Part shown: positions 978 through 8,379 of the stretch, piece after piece
How positions within the stretch are numbered: position 1 is the first letter of the stretch
How the letters are laid out: the number at the start of each line of letters is the position of its first letter
Made by a program: the position numbers and the translations under genes
Source of the DNA: Escherichia coli
Lineage (GTDB): Bacteria; Pseudomonadota; Gammaproteobacteria; Enterobacterales; Enterobacteriaceae
Direction: 5' to 3' (one strand)
DNA length: 64,000 nt
Assembly: GCF_030013205.1 (NCBI RefSeq)
Contig: NZ_CP122648.1
Notes under the pieces: generated by a model
Database searches by the model: none
Seen by the model: the letters and a program-made list of their open reading frames with translations, nothing else
What the model was told of the DNA's origin: nothing

Positions 978-1005
978 ACTTGGTGCCGAAGGCCGGACTC
1001 GAACC
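978..1005. repeat. 28-bp direct repeat of the leuX 3' end (island att site, distal copy)
   Basis: acttggtgccgaaggccggactcgaacc is identical to 8292-8319, which covers the 3' end of tRNA-Leu. Classic att duplication of a tRNA-integrated element. Confidence 0.85.
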
Positions 1006-1484
1006 TAAGTCTCTATAACCTGCTGTAATCACGTTCCTGTTAGCTGTTAAGAGAGCAATCGTAGGACCTTTTTGTTCTAGGGGCTACATATTAAGTTTGA
1101 TCCGCTGGACGGAATCAAACCGAGTGTTCGTGGCGGCATAAAACATCAACGTGCCATACCTGCCTTTTAATGTTTCTGGAGGTCTGCCGAGTCGGGAGGA
1201 AAGAACATTTGTCAGCTATGTGGACGTTGAATAAACGCCACTGCGTTCGGATTTTGAAACCAGTTAGACCCCGGCAGACCTTGTTCAGAATAACTATTTA
1301 ACTCAATGTTATTTATATGAATTAAGCCATTAAGAGCCAAAGCGAAACGCCACCGTAACGCACCCGCATTTTGCTGTTTTATTCACTCTTATAGAAACAA
1401 AGGGCTGATGAAACATAAGACTATCAGCATCTAATGAATACTGTTCATCCATACAGCATAAAAATTCATAAACTTACACTTGAG

Positions 1485-1949
1485 CTACTTTCTCAGTTTG
1501 TCCCACCGAACCGCTGATACGATACCCCAGTTGCCGCTAGGATTAGGCCTACGCCATTTTGCTGTCTCCATGCTACGAAGATACTCAAGAGCTTCAGCAA
1601 ACGTGCCAAAACGCTTCTGAGCCGCTTTATCACCTACGCCAAACGAACCATCACGGGTGCTCGCCAAACCGGGGTGAAAACAGGAACCATCGGCTGCGTA
1701 TGGAACCAACAGTTCCGAGTCGTTATCTTCAGATGGGCCAGGCGCTAACAACTGCCACGGCTCAACGCTCAGAGCGTTAGCCAGCACCTCAATCGCATCC
1801 AGAGACGCATTAGAGCCACCACGTTCAATTCTGCTCATATAACTACGTGCAAACCCGCACCGATCGGCAAAGGCCTCTTGGCTCAATCCGGTGGCAATGC
1901 GCAGTTCTTTTACCCGCTCGCCAAACTGTATTCTCAGGGATTTTTTCAT
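1485..1949 (-). CDS. XRE-family (Cro/C1-type) HTH transcriptional regulator with ~90-aa C-terminal domain of unknown function
   Basis: HTH_XRE motif IQFGERVKELRIATGLSQEAFADRCGFARSYMSRIERGGSNASLDAIEVLANAL. Start placed at internal MKKSL; the ORF track extends to 2042 but the extension precedes the HTH and looks spurious. Confidence 0.7.
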   Translation of the reverse strand: MKKSLRIQFGERVKELRIATGLSQEAFADRCGFARSYMSRIERGGSNASLDAIEVLANALSVEPWQLLAPGPSEDNDSELLVPYAADGSCFHPGLASTRDGSFGVGDKAAQKRFGTFAEALEYLRSMETAKWRRPNPSGNWGIVSAVRWDKLRK

Positions 1950-2199
1950 GCACTGAATGTGCAATTTTGACCACTGTAAGGCCACGCTCCATATGAGATA
2001 TTTTGAATCCAATCTCACTTCAGCGAGCTTAGTCACTAGCATTCATCGGCTGTATCATGACAATCCTTTTTGATTCAAAACAAACACCAATGGTGACATT
2101 TAAAACCCAACAAGTATGATGATCATCATCGGTTGGGCGTCACCAGCGTTCGCTATCAGGCGCGATGTGGTTTGGAAAGTGAGGGAATCATGACGGGAG

Positions 2200-2684
2200 C
2201 AGACTTTTTATTACCGATTGCAGCGGGAGCCGCGATTAGCTGGGCCAGTTATAGTGTAGTTGCCCATGCTGTATCAAAGCAGCACATCAGCACGCTACGC
2301 GCAACTGTATGGGGTGCTCTGGGCACTCTCTCATTGGTGCTGGGCGTATGCGCCTTTTCTGCTGTAGGTGCTGAGCATCAGACAGCACGAAAAGATATCG
2401 TATGTGCAGATGACAACCCGGAATGCTATGCGAAAACGCACCATAACCCGGTCAGGGAGTGCAAAAAGGTAATGGATGAGAAAGCGAAGTTTCGCCATGT
2501 GTGGCAAGAAAGCGAAGCGCCTGTATTTAATACTTATCTCTGGCACGATGAGAACGCGAAGATTATTCAGGCATTTGGGCAACAAGCTAAGGTAGTTAAC
2601 AGCCTGGGGATGCTAGCTCCGCTTCAATACTTTTGTGTTTTCAACGCAAAAACAGGAGAAGTCATTGCGGCCTCTTTCGAATAA
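2200..2684 (+). CDS. hypothetical membrane protein: two N-terminal TM helices plus Cys-containing soluble domain
   Basis: Start at MTGADF (ATG 2200) preceded by GAGGGAA RBS. Hydrophobic helices LLPIAAGAAISWASYSVVAHAV and VWGALGTLSLVLGVCAFSAVGA. No family recognised. Confidence 0.55.
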
Positions 2685-2744
2685 AAATGTGAGGGAATTC
2701 ACCCTAACATCAAAAATAAACTTATGTAATGACCTCGCATTTAA

Positions 2745-3590
2745 TTATTCATTTAAAGATTCAAGAAATGTCCAGCCTTTATGAGTAACATAATACATTT
2801 GTCCTTTTGCCCCTCTTTCAATCACAAAATCAAAGGATAACAGTTCGTTAAGTGCGCCCTCCCAACGGGCTACCTCTCTAGCCGAACTTCCACCAAAGGA
2901 TTGATTTCCCGCTTGAATATCCGTGCCACCTAAATGCCTTATCACATAAATTGTTCCGCTATCATCGACACATGCTAATTTCAGCAAACTGAGTGCATCG
3001 GCGGACAAATTACTTTCTGGCAAAGATTGACTTGTATTCGCATCAGGAGAATTGTTAATGGTAGATATAAGAGAAGACAAATAAGGGCTACTAGAAATAA
3101 TTATCGAAAGTTGCCTACGGACTTTTTCTTTGAAATCAGATAAGTCATTAAAAGACTCTATCAATCCCTTTTGCATGCACTCAGTTTTGAACAATTTAAG
3201 AGACTCATATTGTTCTCTATCAAGGCTTTCAGGGGCAACAGGCTTTGAGGAAAAGTAAATCATTGCCGGTTTTCCCGCATTCAAATGACGGTGGATTTCT
3301 TCGACTGTTCCGCTGGCCTCGTTCCCAGTCGGTGAGCCTAGACGAGTCCAAAACACACCGATTAATAAATCACAATCTACTAATAATCTTTGATTAATCA
3401 ACTCCTGAGGCCTAACTCCTAATTCGGGTGATGTATGAGTTTCCCATCCAATTGGTGTCAACATTACTTTTGAACGAGCTGAATTTATATCATTCCACTC
3501 ATGGATCATTTCACGAATGACTTGTCTCTCTTCAGCGACATCACCAGGAGAAGCAATCATTACAGGGATAACAGTTGCTGTGTAAGCCAT
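2745..3590 (-). CDS. hypothetical protein with DUF4062-like (TIR/flavodoxin-like) N-terminal domain and unknown C-terminal domain
   Basis: 281-aa ORF; N-terminal motif VIPVMIASPGDVAEERQVIREMI resembles the DUF4062 signature (hydrophobic strand-S-x-D-x-EER) from memory. GGAGAG RBS 7 nt upstream; start is 14 bp downstream of the recombinase stop. Confidence 0.5.
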   Translation of the reverse strand: MAYTATVIPVMIASPGDVAEERQVIREMIHEWNDINSARSKVMLTPIGWETHTSPELGVRPQELINQRLLVDCDLLIGVFWTRLGSPTGNEASGTVEEIHRHLNAGKPAMIYFSSKPVAPESLDREQYESLKLFKTECMQKGLIESFNDLSDFKEKVRRQLSIIISSSPYLSSLISTINNSPDANTSQSLPESNLSADALSLLKLACVDDSGTIYVIRHLGGTDIQAGNQSFGGSSAREVARWEGALNELLSFDFVIERGAKGQMYYVTHKGWTFLESLNE

Positions 3591-3603
3591 AAACTCTCCA
3601 TAT

Positions 3604-4164
3604 TCAATCGGTAATAGCTGCTACAGTCGCTCTTGAAACGCCATATTGACGCGCTAACGCACTGATACTCAAACCGCTATTCTTTTTCTCTAAAATCTCT
3701 CTACGGGCTTCTGACGCGATTTTAGGAGGTCTGCCCAATTTCTTACCTTCGGCTTTTGCTCGTGATAGTCCCGCCTGAGTGCGCTCAATCAGCAGATCAC
3801 GCTCCATCTCCGCAACCGCGGCGAGCATAGATAATAGCAACTTCCCAGCGGCAGAAGTGAGATCTGTGTTACCAAGCTGGTGGACAAGAACCTTGATATT
3901 ACGGTCAGCCAGCGCCCTTACCGTTTGCAAGACGTCAATCGCATCACGCCCCAGACGATCAAGCTTCGCTACCACCAACGTTTCACCATCGCGGATTTTA
4001 TTGAGCATTTCAGAAAATGCTTTACGTTGCATTGCCGGAACCTTCCCGCTAACAACATCGGCAAACCAGTAATCAATTTGCCACCCAGCCTGCCCAAGCT
4101 CCAGCCGTTGGTTCTCAGTATCCTGCTGCGATGTCGAAACACGTCCGTAGCCAAAAGTTGCCAT
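3604..4164 (-). CDS. small serine recombinase (resolvase/DNA invertase family)
   Basis: MATFGYGRVSTSQQD catalytic-Ser N-terminus, ...LDRLGRD..., C-terminal HTH (LSISALARQYGVSRATV). Start at internal Met; the track extension to 4233 precedes the conserved N-terminus. Confidence 0.85.
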   Translation of the reverse strand: MATFGYGRVSTSQQDTENQRLELGQAGWQIDYWFADVVSGKVPAMQRKAFSEMLNKIRDGETLVVAKLDRLGRDAIDVLQTVRALADRNIKVLVHQLGNTDLTSAAGKLLLSMLAAVAEMERDLLIERTQAGLSRAKAEGKKLGRPPKIASEARREILEKKNSGLSISALARQYGVSRATVAAITD

Positions 4165-4355
4165 TGTTATCTCCCCATCTGACCCCTGCCAGAAAACGAG
4201 GCCAACATTAGGATGGCCTGCCAGAAAAGCCAAGGCTATTTTTCCAACAGTGTGAAAGCGTGCGATTGGGAGGTGCCAGAAAACGGTCGTTTGTTGGCGC
4301 TTAAAACGGATAAAGACATGTTAGGCTGAAACCATCACTTCATAAGGACAACCGA

Positions 4356-4823
4356 AATGATTAAAGACGCGATTTTTCACCGTGCGGTCAATATCGCTAC
4401 TCGTTATCACGAGTCTGGGACGAATCAAAACCATATGCCCTTTTCATAGGGCTAAACCCTTCATACGCCGATGCTGAGAAGGATGATCGCACCTTGAGCC
4501 GCTGCATATCGTTTGCCAAAAGCAGGGGCTACGGTGGCGTATACATGGCCAACCTGTTCGCATTCGTTCACACCCAGCGACATGAAATGATGAAAGCGTC
4601 TGATCCCATTGGCAAAGATAACGATAGCCACTTGATACGTCTTGTTAGCGGTGCCGGACTGGTTGTCGCCGCATGGGGAAATGAAGGAAGACACCTCAAA
4701 CGCTCAACGACCGTCCGACAGCTATTGCCAGAGAGCACAATGTGCTTCGTCTTAAACGCTACAGGTGAGCCGAAGCACCCTTTGTATATGAAAAACGACA
4801 GTGTTCTCATACCTTTAGGTTAA
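4356..4823 (+). pseudogene. DUF1643-like gene, apparently frameshifted
   Basis: ATG near 4356 gives MIKDAIFHRAVNIATRYHESGTNQNH... then a stop. A different frame carries the conserved core ...FIGLNPSYADAEKDDRTLSRCISFAKSRGYGGVYMANLFA... through to the stop at 4823. One frame change around 4410-4440 is needed to join them; exact position uncertain by a few nt. Confidence 0.5.
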
Positions 4824-5828
4824 CATCGATAACTGCGTTCAGAATATGAACGCAGCCATATGATATATATGACTTTTCTTTAAAATGATGGTGTGCTAGC
4901 TTCTCTCCTGACACCTACCTCATGCGGTAAACCGGTCCGGGTAGGTGGAGATCACCGCTGTTTAGCGGAAGACGTCAGGATGGGAACTCTGCGTAACGTT
5001 GATTGTGGTAGGTAGGGCGCGCAAGCGTTTGATGCAGCCAAGCAGAGGGTGAAAGTAGCTATCGGCGGATTCTTGAGTAGCTTCTTTTGCGCATAATGCA
5101 TCTTTCAAGAAAGGTCGTCACACCACGAGGAAGACTTGATCTTCATCTGGCAAGGGGAACCGAGCAACCTACAGGCTATCTTCTCAGATGGCCTTATGGT
5201 TGATATGTCCGGCTTCCCCCCCGAGGAAGGGTTTACATCTTAAAGAACAAGTTATGTTTTAACATTTTTAACAATTACACTTCTCTGCTGTTTGGTGTCT
5301 TATGGCGTTGCCGTCAAAAGTAAACCTGCCGTTTTTACCTCTCCTGCGTAACAACCAAATACGAACCAGAAGCTGCTAACGTTCAACGTGTTCGCGGTGT
5401 AAATGCAGCCAGATAAGTTGGGAGCGAAAAAGTGGATGCCCTAGGTTTGGAAGCGCCCCTCTCAGGCATAGCGTCCGAAAATTTCCACGGCGGCAGGCTT
5501 ATCCTTATAGAGCCAAACAGACTCAAAAGTTAAGAAGCGCGGTAAAGCTTAAAGCTCGCCCAGATTTCTCATTGATTGCTCGAACTCCGCTACGCTTGTT
5601 TCAACTGGCTTCGCCAGTCACTCTATGAGAGCGCCGCGAATTCTGCACCATGATTTCGACTACCTTCTTTAAAACACTCGCCAGAGAGCCTTACAGCGCG
5701 TTTGAACCGCATATCGCAGCTTTTGCTTACGGATGACTGTCTGATTAGCAGTAGCTTCATGGCCCAGTCCGGTTTACTTTATTGCTATCAACAAGGGAGC
5801 CGTCCAGAGGCGACGCGGAGATAATGCT

Positions 5829-6161
5829 TTGAGAACCGTCGAGATACTGCAATACACCTTACGCAAAGGCAGCGGTGCCGCTTTTCACGCCATTATGCAG
5901 GAAATCAGTGTTCCCCTACACCAACGCCACGGGATCGATGTTGTTTCGTTTGGTAACTCTCTGCATGACCCGGACTGCTATTACCTGATTCGCGCCTTTG
6001 TCAGCCCTAAAAGCATGACTACGGTTCTCGACGCTTTTTACGCAAGCGATGACTGGCGCAGCGGCCCGCGCGAAGACATCATTGGCAACATAGAGGCCAG
6101 CATTAAAACAGTGATAAATCTACCATCAGAAAGCGTAGAAGGGCTGCGGGTGCAATCGTAG
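5829..6161 (+). CDS. NIPSNAP/dimeric alpha-beta-barrel-like small protein
   Basis: 110 aa, TTG start with GGAG 8 nt upstream. Sequence pattern (EILQYTLRKG...YYLIRAF...DDW) resembles the NIPSNAP family from memory. Confidence 0.5.
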   Translation: MRTVEILQYTLRKGSGAAFHAIMQEISVPLHQRHGIDVVSFGNSLHDPDCYYLIRAFVSPKSMTTVLDAFYASDDWRSGPREDIIGNIEASIKTVINLPSESVEGLRVQS

Positions 6162-6293
6162 GTCATCAAGTTTCACCAAACGTGTTTTGAGCGTCTCCAA
6201 ATTCAGCACTATGAAATCCACCACCCTTAATAAAAAACGCGCCAGGAAGCGTCCCAGCGCATTCAAGCATCACTCAACTGAATAGTAACTGAT

Positions 6294-8246
6294 TCAACCT
6301 GTTTGTTTGCCACGCTTTCTTCGCAACGCATCTCTGACAGCATCCAGCCCGTCAGGAATGTTGAATTCCGCTATATCAGGTAACGAAAAATCAATTTTCT
6401 CCACGACTTCAATCATATGAATTGGTTTGAGGTCTTTGCTATATCGCACTTCCGTTTCAGTTTCGCCGCGCACATGCCCAAGTAGCTGCGCTCGTAATTC
6501 TGAGCTAACGCCCTTCTCCTTGAGCAAAGTCGAAACTGAGTGGCGAAAAGAATGGAAAGATTTGCTTCTGTTCCTCTCGAGTTTCAACCGCCCCGCAAGC
6601 AACGATTCATTGAACCATGCGGAAACTGGCCTACCATAGCCTTTTGTTTTATGTGGTTTAAGCTCCGGGAAGAGACGGGTATACCCTGCATCTTTTAAGG
6701 CGTTCACGTAGTCGATGAAACCGAGACTAATCAGCTTTGAATGGAGCGGAATCTTGCGGCGAGCATTAGCATTTTTGAGTTTCTTTCCGCTTTCATTATC
6801 GCTTTCAAGGTTCAAATAATAGACGCCGTCGTCTGCCAGAACATCACTCAGCAGTAACTGAGCGATTTCATTAACTCGCGCCCCCGTCATCAAGCCCAGC
6901 AAAGGTGCCCAATAGTTAAACGGGCAATATTGATGGAATCGCCCTTGCGCATTGCGTTCAACAGTTCCAGCCTCAAACCACGGTAACGAAAAAATCGCTT
7001 TAATTTCATGCGGTTCAAATATGTCAGTGTGATCCTGATCTCGCTCATCTTTATCATCGGATGGAAAAAAGTTTTCGCATGGCGATTTCAGTAGCTTACC
7101 GTCAGCAACAGCCCACTTCATTGCACCATAAATGCCGTTGATATACTTCCTAACGGATTCCTCAGTCATCAATTTATCGCCGCATTCTGCCGCTTTGGCG
7201 ATTAACTGATCCAGCGTTTTCACTCCATATTTAGCTTTGACTAAATTACGGTTTGCTGGGATCGTGCGCAGTTTGCTCTCATAAGCCCGGAGGAAATCGC
7301 GATCAAAATCTTCCAACTGAATGTCACCCATCGCTTCGATCATAAAGCTGAAATAGTTACGGATATCACTTATAGCCGACTCCGATACCTTGCCCTTGCG
7401 CCGATGCTTTAGATATTCAGAGCATAACCACGACAGATTCTTAGTGTAATACTTTCGATTAACATACTCGTTATCGATAGTAGGGGCAGGAGCGGCAAGA
7501 GGCACGGTAGGATGAACACTAGCGACTGGAGGCGTGGTCTTAGCCAGCCAATCAAGCCTTAGGCTTTCTGCATGGACTTTATTGATCAAAAGCGTATCGG
7601 GTTTAATTACCGGCCAACCGGAGGTGAAAAACCAACCGCCTTTAGCGTCGCTTCCGGCAGTTTTGAACACCGAAGCTTCTGAATAACCGTCGCTAATAAT
7701 GTTACGTAAATGTGCTGGTTGCGCAGTGAGTTGCAGATAGCCTTTAGCAACCCCCTCGATACCCTTCTCTTCGCCATAATTAAGAACGTAACTGCCATCA
7801 AGCGGGTCTAGCTCAGCCTCAGAGAGCGCTGCAACATAAAAGCCAGCCTGCCCCGTCGCCAGCCAGAATACGGGCAGATTACGGTTCATCACCGCCTGTA
7901 TTAATTGCGCAACAGGCAACTCAACTGACTGAGCAAAGTTAGAAAGCGAGATCATACCCTCACCAGCAAGCAGCGGGGCGCAGTCACTTAAAGTTCGATA
8001 ATCCAATTGTTCATACTCTTGTAAGGTCTGATACCAGACCGCCAACAGGAGCGCGGACTTCTGCTTTGCTTCATGAAGATCGTGAGTGCCTGTTGAAGTG
8101 TGAATCTCACACTGTCCTGCGTATCGACGAAAACGTTGGGGAATGCTAATGCGGACAACATAAATGCCGCTGGTTCGACGATAGAGTTTATATCGCTGAG
8201 ACATCGCCTCGTATACCCTTTTGTAAGAGGGGCTACGCGATTTCAA
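6294..8246 (-). CDS. tyrosine-type site-specific integrase (650 aa, unusually long)
   Basis: C-terminal catalytic region HSFRHSVSTLL...LLGH...; lambda-like arm-binding N-terminus (YKLYRRTSGIYVVRISIP); directly adjacent to tRNA-Leu. A ~250-aa central region is of unclear homology. Confidence 0.85.
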   Translation of the reverse strand: MKSRSPSYKRVYEAMSQRYKLYRRTSGIYVVRISIPQRFRRYAGQCEIHTSTGTHDLHEAKQKSALLLAVWYQTLQEYEQLDYRTLSDCAPLLAGEGMISLSNFAQSVELPVAQLIQAVMNRNLPVFWLATGQAGFYVAALSEAELDPLDGSYVLNYGEEKGIEGVAKGYLQLTAQPAHLRNIISDGYSEASVFKTAGSDAKGGWFFTSGWPVIKPDTLLINKVHAESLRLDWLAKTTPPVASVHPTVPLAAPAPTIDNEYVNRKYYTKNLSWLCSEYLKHRRKGKVSESAISDIRNYFSFMIEAMGDIQLEDFDRDFLRAYESKLRTIPANRNLVKAKYGVKTLDQLIAKAAECGDKLMTEESVRKYINGIYGAMKWAVADGKLLKSPCENFFPSDDKDERDQDHTDIFEPHEIKAIFSLPWFEAGTVERNAQGRFHQYCPFNYWAPLLGLMTGARVNEIAQLLLSDVLADDGVYYLNLESDNESGKKLKNANARRKIPLHSKLISLGFIDYVNALKDAGYTRLFPELKPHKTKGYGRPVSAWFNESLLAGRLKLERNRSKSFHSFRHSVSTLLKEKGVSSELRAQLLGHVRGETETEVRYSKDLKPIHMIEVVEKIDFSLPDIAEFNIPDGLDAVRDALRRKRGKQTG

Positions 8247-8294
8247 GCAAAATTATGGATTAAATTGTTTTAAAACAACGACTTAGATAAGACT

Positions 8295-8379
8295 TGGTGC
8301 CGAAGGCCGGACTCGAACCGGCACGTATTTCTACGGTTGATTTTGAATCAACTGCGTCTACCGATTTCGCCACTTCGGC
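8295..8379 (-). tRNA. leuX: tRNA-Leu (CAA), leuX
   Basis: Reverse complement reads GCCGAAGTGGCGAAATCGGTAGACGCAGTTGATTCAAAATCAACCGTAGAAATACGTGCCGGTTCGAGTCCGGCCTTCGGCACCA (85 nt, CAA anticodon, CCA end). Confidence 0.95.

Follow-up and report, generated by a model that had tools for sequence, protein, structure and literature searches.

The leuX gene is a well-known insertion hotspot of E. coli, and the locus described here raises the question of whether the DNA between two copies of its 3' end is a discrete element with its own means of integration, and how such an element would have spread. The window, a 64-kb stretch of E. coli contig NZ_CP122648.1, contains the 28-mer ACTTGGTGCCGAAGGCCGGACTCGAACC exactly twice, at 978–1005 and 8292–8319, with a repeat-to-repeat spacing of 7,314 bp. 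No third copy occurs in the window even at 3 mismatches (the number expected by chance is 0). The leuX gene itself, a tRNA-Leu(CAA) on the minus strand at 8295–8379 (ARAGORN; Rfam tRNA, 59.4 bits), is the integration target and is still intact. The proximal repeat (8292–8319) forms its 3' end, comprising the final 25 nt of the gene and 3 nt downstream, while the distal repeat (978–1005) is a displaced copy of that end. The first-pass annotation had taken this duplication to delimit an element, in agreement with the exact match and with the position of the right copy in leuX. Very probably, positions 978–8291 make up a single small integrative element, 7,314 bp long when one repeat is counted, that encodes its own integrase.

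A repeat-bounded insertion beside leuX

The proposed repeat length of 28 bp is exact within the window, but the true block of identity is 26 bp. Beside other left flanks (O157:H7, strain 4973) the repeat common to the element is TTGGTGCC...GAACC, and homology to element variants with such flanks begins at 980; since only 26 bp are common elsewhere, the outer 2 nt are a coincidence of the present flank. A Yersinia relative narrows the crossover to the final 18 nt of the tRNA: owing to a polymorphism in that tRNA, the exact repeat there is only 18 bp long, and the distal repeat retains the element-type T-loop base. The G+C content is mostly 39–52% inside the element (about 47% overall), compared with about 54% in the core flank.

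The empty site was searched for with a synthetic junction made of the left flank, one repeat and leuX. Contiguous matches, with identities reaching 100%, occur in 219 complete E. coli genomes, among them E. coli C, ATCC 11775 and S88, and this comparison with insertion-free strains identifies the region as a discrete insert. The element is present in only 347 of 5,426 complete E. coli genomes.

The left flank (1–977) lies outside the element and holds the N-terminal part of an AbiJ-NTD4 gene on the minus strand, followed by 530 bp of non-coding DNA. The gene (ORF 1–447) runs off the window edge and was assigned by PGAP in strain ML35 and by PADLOC (PDC-S32, E = 4e-37). This flank abuts leuX directly in the 219 empty-site genomes. 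In ML35, 99.4–99.5% identity to K-12 KpLE2 begins ∼1 kb past the window edge, along a stretch with the order IS911/IS30/IS600 - fec - IS1F, and no integrase is found between that stretch and leuX. The left flank is the end, nearest leuX, of an older island of KpLE2/PAI-leuX(fec) type whose integrase has been lost. The earlier suggestion of an integrase-less remnant of an older tandem island is borne out by the AbiJ-NTD4 gene and the KpLE2 (fec) sequence behind it; its description as not K-12-like holds for the ∼2 kb beside the repeat and fails beyond. As first noted, leuX in K-12 is followed by intB of KpLE2, which is a pseudogene there.

Integrase, element ends and routes of spread

The integrase gene (6294–8204, minus strand) adjoins the tRNA, as first noticed, its start lying 88 bp from the tRNA-proximal repeat. 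The ATG at 8204 agrees with the family N-terminus MSQRY, and a terminator hairpin is found at 6235–6264. The 636-aa product is a tyrosine integrase according to Pfam, its invariant catalytic residues and AF2/Foldseek comparison. It has an N-terminal DUF6538 domain, an extra alpha/beta domain of ∼140 aa (about residues 80–222), a SAM-like core-binding domain and a catalytic domain (Pfam, AF2 model), and residues R443, H551-x-x-R554, H577 and Y588 do not vary among 19 homologues. With the AF2 model (pLDDT 79.5), the top Foldseek matches are lambda Int, Brujita Int, Tn1549 Int and XerH; the protein is full length, with conserved catalytic residues and a lambda-Int-like fold. It is larger than K-12 intB and different from it, as had been noted, being unrelated to intB or the P4-type integrases; with the P4-type enzyme of 420 aa acting at this site in other strains, BLASTP gave no similarity (E = 0.78).

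The ends of the element are conserved across genera. On the left, a non-coding arm occupies 1006–1484, and its first ∼90 bp are conserved in an alignment with relatives in E. coli, Yersinia and Serratia. It includes ACCTTTTTGTTCTAGGGGCTAC at 1066–1087, of which ACCCTTTTGTAAGAGGGGCTAC at 8215–8236, 56 bp from the core, is a direct repeat. The latter motif is also conserved across genera, and the two are candidate arm-type binding sites of the integrase. An excisionase (recombination directionality factor) was not recognised in the element.

Insertion into the leuX end is an ordinary kind of event. As the comparison between strains shows, the element's lambda-Int-type integrase recombined a leuX 3' end carried by the element (attP) with that of the chromosome (attB), rebuilding an intact tRNA beside the integrase gene and displacing the original leuX 3' end, together with the older integrase-less KpLE2/fec-type island, by 7.3 kb. 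Because unrelated P4-like satellites use the same site in other strains, arrays at leuX grow by successive insertions on the tRNA side.

It could also be argued that the element is immobile, that its repeat is an ancient fossil, and that presence or absence is determined mainly by homologous recombination, the leuX region being exchanged between strains, insert included or not, through its conserved flanks. Relative to Nissle 1917, the left flank, the element and ahr-yjgR are 99.8–100% identical, while the next 7.7 kb past yjgR are only 98.7% identical, an indication of en-bloc transfer with flanks. The element occurs in ∼300 near-identical copies, and the window's left junction is common to 285 of the 347 element-bearing genomes, nearly all the near-identical copies among them. 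One of the element's genes, DUF1643, is frameshifted, and the attP junction of an excised, circular form was not found in JGI metagenome contigs, IMG/VR or the 5,426 complete E. coli genomes. Against immobility, however, the integrase is full length with every catalytic residue present, and variants of the element, 94% and about 89% identical, have other neighbours on their left, the boundary falling precisely at the repeat. In O157:H7 and strain 4973 this neighbour is a truncated P4-type integrase, in strain 3359 an intact P4-like satellite. In O26 RM8426, between flanks 99.9–100% identical to those of the window, the site holds a P4-like satellite instead, and the repeat-bounded structure also occurs in other genera and at other tRNAs. 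Immobility is on the whole somewhat unlikely; homologous recombination explains the spread of the window copy, not its origin. For an integrative element, exchange of the whole leuX region with its flanks, as seen for the window copy, would be a second route of spread. Given the number of near-identical copies with the same junction, the exact variant in the window may go back to a single integration or to a few.

The element family: backbone, cargo and a second recombinase

Comparison between genomes shows the element to be a member of a conserved family of 6–11 kb elements in Enterobacterales and Pseudomonas. The family is widespread and apparently undescribed, as no publication describing it was found in the literature, including under 'DUF6538'. 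Its backbone consists of the integrase, a NIPSNAP protein, DUF1643, a small serine recombinase and an HTH regulator, in constant gene order and orientation in all family loci, while the cargo is variable. The insertion targets are tRNA-Leu(CAA), tRNA-Thr(CGT) and tRNA-Gly(CCC); 17 further family loci of the 34 scanned, covering all three targets, carry a repeat of 18–60 bp or more of the adjacent tRNA 3' end. Integrase identity between target classes goes down to 36–46%, whereas the HTH, recombinase, DUF1643 and NIPSNAP proteins are mostly 80–98% identical within Enterobacterales, which shows that family members have exchanged integrase modules.

At the left end, the backbone gene at 1485–1949 (minus strand) encodes an HTH_3/HTH_31 (XRE-type) regulator of 154 aa (Pfam HTH_31, 5e-14), which PADLOC classes as 'control protein'/CapH-like HTH. 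Its C-terminal half is uncharacterised, and identity across the family, Pseudomonas included, is 64–93%. A predicted membrane protein of 164 aa (2190–2684, plus strand; PGAP; phrog_20749 of unknown function, 1e-102) is semi-conserved, occurring in many members at 58–84% identity. The cargo gene at 2745–3590 (minus strand) encodes a DUF4062-domain protein of 281 aa (Pfam, 3e-4) that some family members have and others lack; in loci L005 and L014 it is missing from the interval separating the genes for the membrane protein and the recombinase. The protein is similar to the first 165 aa of the PADLOC candidate defence system PDC-S60 (6e-27), a match of one domain only, and is a candidate defence effector, which may act against phages, possibly together with the membrane protein. 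The cargo of relatives includes PDC-S06, AbiU/AIPR, a methyl-directed restriction enzyme and PDC-S49, and the family's variable cargo appears to be largely made up of known or candidate anti-phage genes.

Several features could mark a new type of phage satellite: a terminal gene for a repressor-like XRE HTH protein, a satellite-like size of 6–11 kb, a tRNA target and a site also used by P4-like satellites. Such a satellite would be silenced by the HTH protein, induced by a helper phage and, once the integrase had excised it, packaged into capsids of the helper in the manner of P4-like satellites and PICI. The defence-type cargo occupies fixed slots, as it does in P4 hotspots (PMC10121019), and Hochhauser et al. 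propose that integrase-only islands may be uncharacterised satellites. Yet Pfam, NCBIfam and PHROGs detect no primase/replicase, AlpA, capsid-remodelling or packaging gene, 50,697 phage records show no similarity except a weak match to the recombinase, and IMG/VR lacks the attP form, which makes a satellite very unlikely.

The DUF1643 gene (4357–4823, plus strand) is a pseudogene in the window, as indicated by tblastn, alignment and PGAP ('frameshifted'). The alignment traces its inactivation to a 1-nt deletion in the T-run at 4373–4377 (T5 instead of T6); from residue 7 onward it is 98% identical (tblastn) to the intact O157:H7 copy. It is followed by a perfect hairpin (4832–4855) that is 100% conserved wherever DUF1643 occurs. 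The non-coding stretch at 4856–5705 has three parts: a variable slot (4856–5387), block A (5388–5593), which nhmmer finds in most family members, and block B1 (5597–5705), which duplicates the region of the integrase terminator. No ORF of at least 50 aa, no Rfam match and no consensus RNA fold were found in this non-coding stretch. The NIPSNAP-family gene (5829–6161, plus strand; 110 aa; PGAP) lies between direct copies of block B (B1, and B2 at about 6170–6268); its identity across the family is mostly 80–89%, with one member at 43%.

Searches detected no gene for a relaxase, replication or packaging in the element, which would not be self-transmissible and may hitch-hike between cells on some helper. 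About 98 plasmids from E. coli, Salmonella and Shigella carry backbone fragments (HTH, membrane protein, recombinase, DUF1643), in one case adjoining IncA/C mobI/mobH. These fragments, the wide host range including Pseudomonas, and the conserved non-coding blocks without coding or RNA signature would suit an integrative mobilisable element, transferred by a conjugative plasmid or ICE from an unrecognised oriT, perhaps in those blocks. There is little chance of this, however, as the element encodes neither relaxase nor coupling protein and the plasmid copies, IS1-bounded and integrase-free, fit IS-mediated capture rather than mobilisation.

The remaining backbone gene (3604–4164, minus strand) encodes a 186-aa member of the small serine recombinases (resolvase/invertase type), matching gamma-delta resolvase (1e-25) and Gin invertase (6e-23) in the PDB and phrog_125 'DNA invertase' (1e-55), with 71–93% identity across the family. 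A res-like region lies upstream at 4183–4299, consisting of the motif TGCCAGAAAAC at 4187, 4219 and 4274 and a 26-bp dyad, TGCCAGAAAACG|GT|CGTTTGTTGGCG, at 4274–4299. The dyad is conserved with 0–3 mismatches in every recombinase-holding family locus, Pseudomonas included (5 in locus L038), and homology between family members stops just past it. In strains 4973 and MB51 the recombinase side is joined to foreign DNA at the dyad centre; the right half-site of this hybrid junction, CGATTGATGACA, differs but is related, and about 90 genomes contain the 1.8 kb of DNA joined at this point. Together, the hybrid junction and the recurring joined DNA have the signature of site-specific exchange at the dyad.

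Tn3 and gamma-delta resolvases also repress their own promoters at res, and the dyad might accordingly be a mere autoregulation operator, the recombinase being a captured transposon or plasmid relic with no role in the life cycle. There is a single dyad per locus, and homology would naturally stop where a conserved functional region stops. As only one site occurs in each locus, a crossover role rests on the breakpoints and one type of hybrid junction. Gene and site are nevertheless kept by almost every family member, in E. coli as in Pseudomonas, and this, along with the 4973/MB51 junction at the site centre and its joined DNA in about 90 genomes, renders the operator-only reading unlikely. 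No invertible segment was found in the family loci. As a crossover enzyme, the recombinase would act at the dyad to resolve multimers or tandem copies, and the integrase-side and cargo-side halves of related elements may be reassorted as a by-product.

Comparison with known systems

The leuX gene is defence hotspot #37 of Hochhauser et al. 2023, with 'integrase-only' islands (integrase/recombinase genes only) whose mode of mobilisation is unknown (PMC10121019, PMC12707154). The element follows the pattern of the leuX islands in general (hotspot #37, PAI-leuX, K-12 KpLE2): leuX is the target, the integrase gene lies beside the tRNA, whose 3' end is repeated directly, insertions accrue in tandem, and the cargo is of defence type. 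In KpLE2 and the majority of leuX islands, however, the integrase is a P4-type protein of about 400–420 aa, unrelated to the 636-aa DUF6538-type enzyme, and the element is only 7.3 kb long with a conserved backbone of its own. With P4-like satellites it shares the identical att site (O26 RM8426, strain 3359), a similar size and defence genes in hotspots, but it has another integrase family and lacks alpha primase-helicase, Psu, Delta/Ogr and Icd-like genes.

The serine recombinase has the domain layout of the Tn3/gamma-delta resolvases and the Gin/Hin invertases, although the element has no transposase and a single site. As in Tn3/gamma-delta res, a cluster of binding motifs lies just upstream, the outermost being a 12-2-12 dyad in the position of res site I; unlike res, there is one clear dyad and the remaining motifs are direct copies. 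A further parallel is with SCC, in which large serine recombinases (CcrAB/CcrC) integrate at rlmH, whereas the element uses a tyrosine integrase at a tRNA and its serine recombinase is of the small resolvase type, with weak catalytic-domain matches to Ccr only. DUF1643 is a conserved accessory gene of the SCC ccr complex (PMC10581047), and in both systems a serine recombinase gene adjoins a DUF1643 gene in a small chromosomal cassette with variable cargo.

Boundaries and occupancy of the leuX site

An integrase beside a tRNA gene, bounding repeats of the tRNA 3′ end and a clean empty site mark the element as a tRNA-integrating island, and its insertion at leuX, a known hotspot, is an event of an ordinary kind. 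Within the window, the 28-mer ACTTGGTGCCGAAGGCCGGACTCGAACC has exactly two copies (978-1005 and 8292-8319) and no third one at up to 3 mismatches (none is expected by chance). ARAGORN and Rfam both place leuX, a tRNA-Leu(CAA) gene, at 8295-8379 on the minus strand, so that the right copy consists of the final 25 nt of leuX and 3 nt beyond. The two-copy repeat with one copy in the leuX 3′ end, as described in the first-pass annotation, is therefore confirmed. Its length of 28 bp is exact in the window but falls to 26 bp where the element adjoins other flanks, meaning that 2 of the 28 bp are coincidental to the window's left flank. The G+C content between the repeats is mostly 39–52% (∼47% overall), against ∼54% on the right, where leuX is followed by the core genes ahr, yjgR and lptG. 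Also in the window, the pepA-holC intergenic region (15308-15606) contains a ∼100-bp tandem internal repeat (BLAST self-matches offset by ∼96 bp).

The distal repeat (978-1005) is followed by a non-coding arm (1006-1484) and by genes for an XRE-type HTH regulator (1485-1949, minus strand), a membrane protein (2190-2684, plus), a DUF4062 protein (2745-3590, minus), a small serine recombinase of 186 aa (3604-4164, minus), a frameshifted DUF1643 protein (4357-4823, plus), a NIPSNAP protein (5829-6161, plus) and a tyrosine integrase of 636 aa (6294-8204, minus), which starts 88 bp from the repeat in leuX.

A query made of the left flank (378-977), one repeat and the leuX side was searched in 5,426 complete E. 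coli genomes. The predicted empty junction was contiguous, over at least 80% of the query length, in 219 of them (best identities 99.9–100%), including E. coli C, the type strain ATCC 11775 and S88. The element itself, counted at ≥80% coverage, is present in 347 of the 5,426 genomes, 285 of which have the window's left junction; in the remaining carriers, homology opens at window position 980, within the repeat, beside another neighbour. Comparison with genomes lacking the insertion had been proposed as a check, and the empty junctions and limited distribution that it revealed bear out a discrete insert. Carriers include the well-studied strains Nissle 1917, ATCC 25922 and ML35, with a variant in O157:H7. 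In O157:H7 TW14359 and strain 4973, the element variant adjoins a truncated P4-type integrase, and in strain 3359 a 94% variant sits between leuX and an intact P4-like satellite with a reverse transcriptase. In O26 RM8426, flanks 99.9–100% identical to those of the window enclose a 14-kb P4-like satellite instead. Behind the variant in TW14359 (locus L003, 1-11800), after the truncated P4-type integrase, lies a defence-rich older island with type II Zorya, a phosphorothioate-dependent restriction endonuclease, a STY4851/ECs_5259 family protein and a DEAD/DEAH helicase.

In K-12, leuX is followed by an intB pseudogene and KpLE2, just as the first-pass annotation had stated. That annotation also took the sequence left of 978 to be neither K-12-like nor integrase-bearing, and suggested that an older tandem island might have left it behind. 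The edge-truncated ORF (1-447) belongs to an AbiJ-NTD4 gene (PADLOC PDC-S32). Strain ML35, 99.98% identical to the window over 20.5 kb, allows the flank to be followed outwards: ∼2 kb beside the distal repeat are missing from the K-12 leuX region, and from ∼1 kb past the window edge ML35 is 99.4–99.5% identical to KpLE2 (IS911/IS30/IS600 - fec operon - IS1F). No integrase lies between this KpLE2-like island and leuX in ML35, and in S88 the region is listed as PAI-S88-leuX (Fec, Ag43) (PMC7545054). Together, these observations support an older-island remnant without an integrase, while the description as not K-12-like holds only for the ∼2 kb beside the repeat and fails farther left. A search of 20 kb of ML35 and 46 kb of K-12 for another leuX 3′ fragment (13 bp or longer) that would mark the far boundary of the older island gave none.

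The integrase and its related family

The integrase start was set at 8204 because the family N-terminus is MSQRY. The protein has an N-terminal DUF6538 domain, an extra alpha/beta domain (confidently modelled), a SAM-like core-binding domain and a catalytic domain. Residues R443, H551-x-x-R554, H577 and Y588 are invariant across 19 homologues, and the best Foldseek matches of the model are lambda Int, Brujita Int, Tn1549 Int and XerH; it is predicted to be a catalytically competent tyrosine recombinase with a lambda-Int-like fold. Compared by BLASTP with a P4-type integrase of elements at this site, it shows no similarity (E = 0.78), in agreement with the claim that it differs from the K-12 enzyme. 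A 22-nt motif occurs in the same orientation 56–61 bp inside each repeat (1066-1087 and 8215-8236) and is kept at both ends in Yersinia and Serratia relatives, making its copies candidate arm-type sites. Integration by the element's own integrase is well supported.

Integrase homologues occur in Enterobacter, Cronobacter, Yersinia, Pectobacterium, Pantoea, Serratia, Kosakonia, Pluralibacter, Citrobacter and Pseudomonas, and in 17 further loci a second copy of the 3′ end of the integrase-adjacent tRNA gene lies 6–11 kb away (∼3 kb in one decayed locus). Repeat lengths range from 18 to at least 60 bp, with a maximum of 124 bp. This longest repeat, in Y. enterocolitica (L005, 9791-20840), contains a whole second tRNA-Leu(CAA) gene and is followed by a P4-type integrase, and the locus is a tandem array with a duplicated tRNA gene. 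In a Yersinia member, the tRNA gene and the element copy differ at one T-loop base, and the distal repeat has the element-type base, placing the crossover within the final 18 nt of the tRNA.

The integrases fall into three target classes: those at tRNA-Leu(CAA) are at least 67% identical to that of the element, those at tRNA-Thr(CGT) ∼45% and those at tRNA-Gly(CCC) ∼36%. In contrast, the HTH regulator, serine recombinase, DUF1643 and NIPSNAP proteins are mostly 80–98% identical across classes within Enterobacterales, and 64–71% in Pseudomonas, indicating that integrase modules have been exchanged on a common backbone. Cargo also varies between members, with PDC-S06 (AAA_13), an AbiU/AIPR protein, a methyl-directed restriction enzyme (DUF6998) and PDC-S49 among the genes carried. 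In the window, the N-terminal domain of the DUF4062 protein matches the candidate defence protein PDC-S60 (PADLOC, 6e-27), a match that covers residues 8-167 only, against profile positions 5-169 of 906; the protein shares a domain with PDC-S60 and is not a member, since a full-length 906-aa match is absent. The DUF1643 gene is broken by a 1-nt deletion, one T lost from a T6 run (4373-4377); the annotations of ML35 and Nissle 1917 show this pseudogene too, and the gene is intact in O157:H7 and in the plasmid copies. The family is conserved and apparently undescribed: no published description of it was found, nor any paper on 'DUF6538'. A 9.9-kb contig labelled 'MAG: Collinsella sp.' (JAIJJM010000048.1, L016) contains the E. 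coli element at 99.8–100% identity with the same 28-bp repeat, and is almost certainly a binning contaminant in an actinobacterial MAG.

The ∼1 kb preceding the NIPSNAP gene (4825-5828) has no ORF of 50 aa or more. Its left part (4856-5387, 540 bp) is 90% identical to an element of Y. enterocolitica (L009), where neighbouring genes are only 74–82% identical. In other family members this slot holds a 338-aa protein, itself with no Pfam, PADLOC or PHROG match; a decayed copy of its gene was sought in 4825-5828 by tblastn, with no match. Next comes block A (5388-5593), a non-coding segment that most of the family has in common across genera (L008, L018, L032 and L033 among others); its orientation never varies, and four loci have two copies. 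Its homology stops sharply after TCCTTATAG and after ...CTCGA(A/T)CTCCGC, and these ends are recurrent. The only ORF in the block is a mini-ORF of 19–21 aa, which some members keep intact but the window does not, and its per-phase variability (0.64 / 0.41 / 0.60) is not coding-like. A structured RNA is not supported for block A or the ORF-free region: Rfam gave no match at E ≤ 1, and the RNAalifold consensus energies were no better than -1.7 and -3.4 kcal/mol, and covariation was absent. Block B (5597-5705) duplicates the integrase terminator region (∼6170-6268), and the direct copies flank the NIPSNAP gene. In Yersinia relatives this gene is found across block B from its position in the window, an arrangement reminiscent of cassette movement.

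The small serine recombinase and its putative site

The second recombinase is of the small serine type, its catalytic domain being N-terminal and its HTH C-terminal; it matches gamma-delta resolvase over residues 1-183 (1e-25) and Gin (6e-23). Three copies of the motif TGCCAGAAAAC lie upstream of the gene (4187, 4219 and 4274), and the last forms the left half of a 12-2-12 dyad, TGCCAGAAAACG|GT|CGTTTGTTGGCG, at 4274-4299. This 26-bp dyad is present in every recombinase-bearing locus of the family with 0–3 mismatches (5 in one, L038), including two Pseudomonas loci where the recombinase is only 71% identical. In six comparisons, similarity between family members ends just past the dyad, at window ∼4296-4298. 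Strains 4973 and MB51 have a junction in the middle of the site, where the recombinase side meets unrelated DNA that brings a related but different right half-site, CGATTGATGACA; the unrelated 1.8 kb from this junction is found at full length in ∼90 genomes.

The layout is similar to that of Tn3/gamma-delta res, the candidate crossover site of the element being the one farthest from the recombinase gene. In the Tn3 family, res comprises three dimer-binding subsites beside the gene, and two res copies recombine; in the element, 4183-4299 contains one 12-2-12 dyad and further, direct copies of the motif. Neither a transposase ORF nor terminal inverted repeats were found in the element, unlike the Tn3 family with its DDE transposase. 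There being a single dyad per locus would suit an operator with no role in crossover; the conservation of the dyad, the breakpoints and the hybrid junction form the pattern expected of site-specific exchange. Under site-specific exchange, the recombinase may resolve multimers or tandem copies, incidentally reassorting the two halves of related elements.

Two other arrangements were considered and rejected. A recombinase-controlled invertible segment was discarded because the inverted repeat 2209-2229/3596-3616 is at chance level and gene order and orientation are constant in all loci. A hairpin at 4832-4855 with a weak copy at 1240-1263 was considered as a site pair, but the second copy is no better than background; the hairpin is the conserved 3′ flank of DUF1643.

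The rearranged leuX locus of 4973 (L004, 12001-17684) and MB51 (L092) recurs in ∼90 genomes without the integrase half of the element. Its order is leuX, an AbiJ-side flank fragment, the 1.8 kb, the hybrid recombinase site, the recombinase/cargo/HTH half, the repeat and a truncated P4-type integrase. Strain LD22-1 (L093, 6007-9694) has another type of leuX island, with no tyrosine integrase; beside leuX are a different serine recombinase (210 aa), a DUF3800 protein and a DEAD/DEAH helicase. In islands at leuX, serine recombinases seem to be a recurring feature.

Mobility and comparison with known elements

The predicted attP junction, ...TTAGATAAG-ACTTGGTGCCGAAGGCCGGACTCGAACC-TAAGTCTCTA..., was found in none of the metagenome contigs, IMG/VR or the complete E. 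coli genomes, although such forms are seldom captured in assemblies. The element has no recognised gene for a relaxase, replication, packaging or an excisionase, and 50,697 phage records showed no similarity beyond a weak recombinase match. Backbone fragments, bounded by IS1 and without the integrase, occur on ∼98 plasmids. There is sequence evidence that the window's copy spread together with its flanks. Relative to Nissle 1917, the left flank, element and ahr-yjgR are 99.8–100% identical, falling to 98.7% past yjgR, and nearly all near-identical copies have the same left junction, indicating that homologous recombination of the whole region contributes to its distribution.

Among the 41 defence hotspots of E. 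coli, leuX (#37) is the most occupied, and for most of its occupants no means of movement has been identified (PMC10121019). Many islands there have only integrase or recombinase genes, and how these islands move is not known (PMC10121019, PMC12707154). The element provides a concrete, sharply bounded example from this hotspot with a clean empty site. With interchangeable integrases, a resolvase-like module whose site can be identified, and slots for known and candidate anti-phage genes, its family is a practical system for studying excision, reshuffling and transfer in 'integrase-only' defence islands.

Several known classes do not accommodate the element. P4-like satellites and KpLE2 have a P4-type integrase (Arm-DNA-bind_3 + Phage_int_M), an alpha primase-helicase, psu and delta, and none of these genes was found in the element. 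PICI-type satellites carry int, alpA, a pri-rep replication module and packaging-redirection genes; no Pfam, NCBIfam or PHROGs match to a primase/replicase or AlpA was found in the element, which is not of this type. With no relaxase or T4SS match, it also does not appear, by recognisable genes, to be an integrative mobilisable or conjugative element.

Taken jointly, the data might be read as an unrecognised class of hitch-hiking mobile element in which two recombinases divide the labour, but we consider this improbable. Here, the swappable tyrosine integrase would pick the tRNA target, and the serine recombinase, acting at the 26-bp site and perhaps also at the sharp boundaries of blocks A and B, would reassort and capture cargo modules. 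If true, the element would be a platform on which cassettes of anti-phage genes are exchanged throughout Enterobacterales and Pseudomonas. Such an arrangement would parallel the serine-recombinase and DUF1643 core of staphylococcal SCC, in which DUF1643 beside a serine recombinase is a feature of the ccr complex (PMC10581047). SCC elements, however, integrate at rlmH by a large serine recombinase (Ccr), while that of the element has 186 aa and matches Ccr profiles at 23–45 bits, against cut-offs of 700–900. The link to SCC is thus a parallel and not membership, with the DUF1643 neighbour as the sole shared feature.
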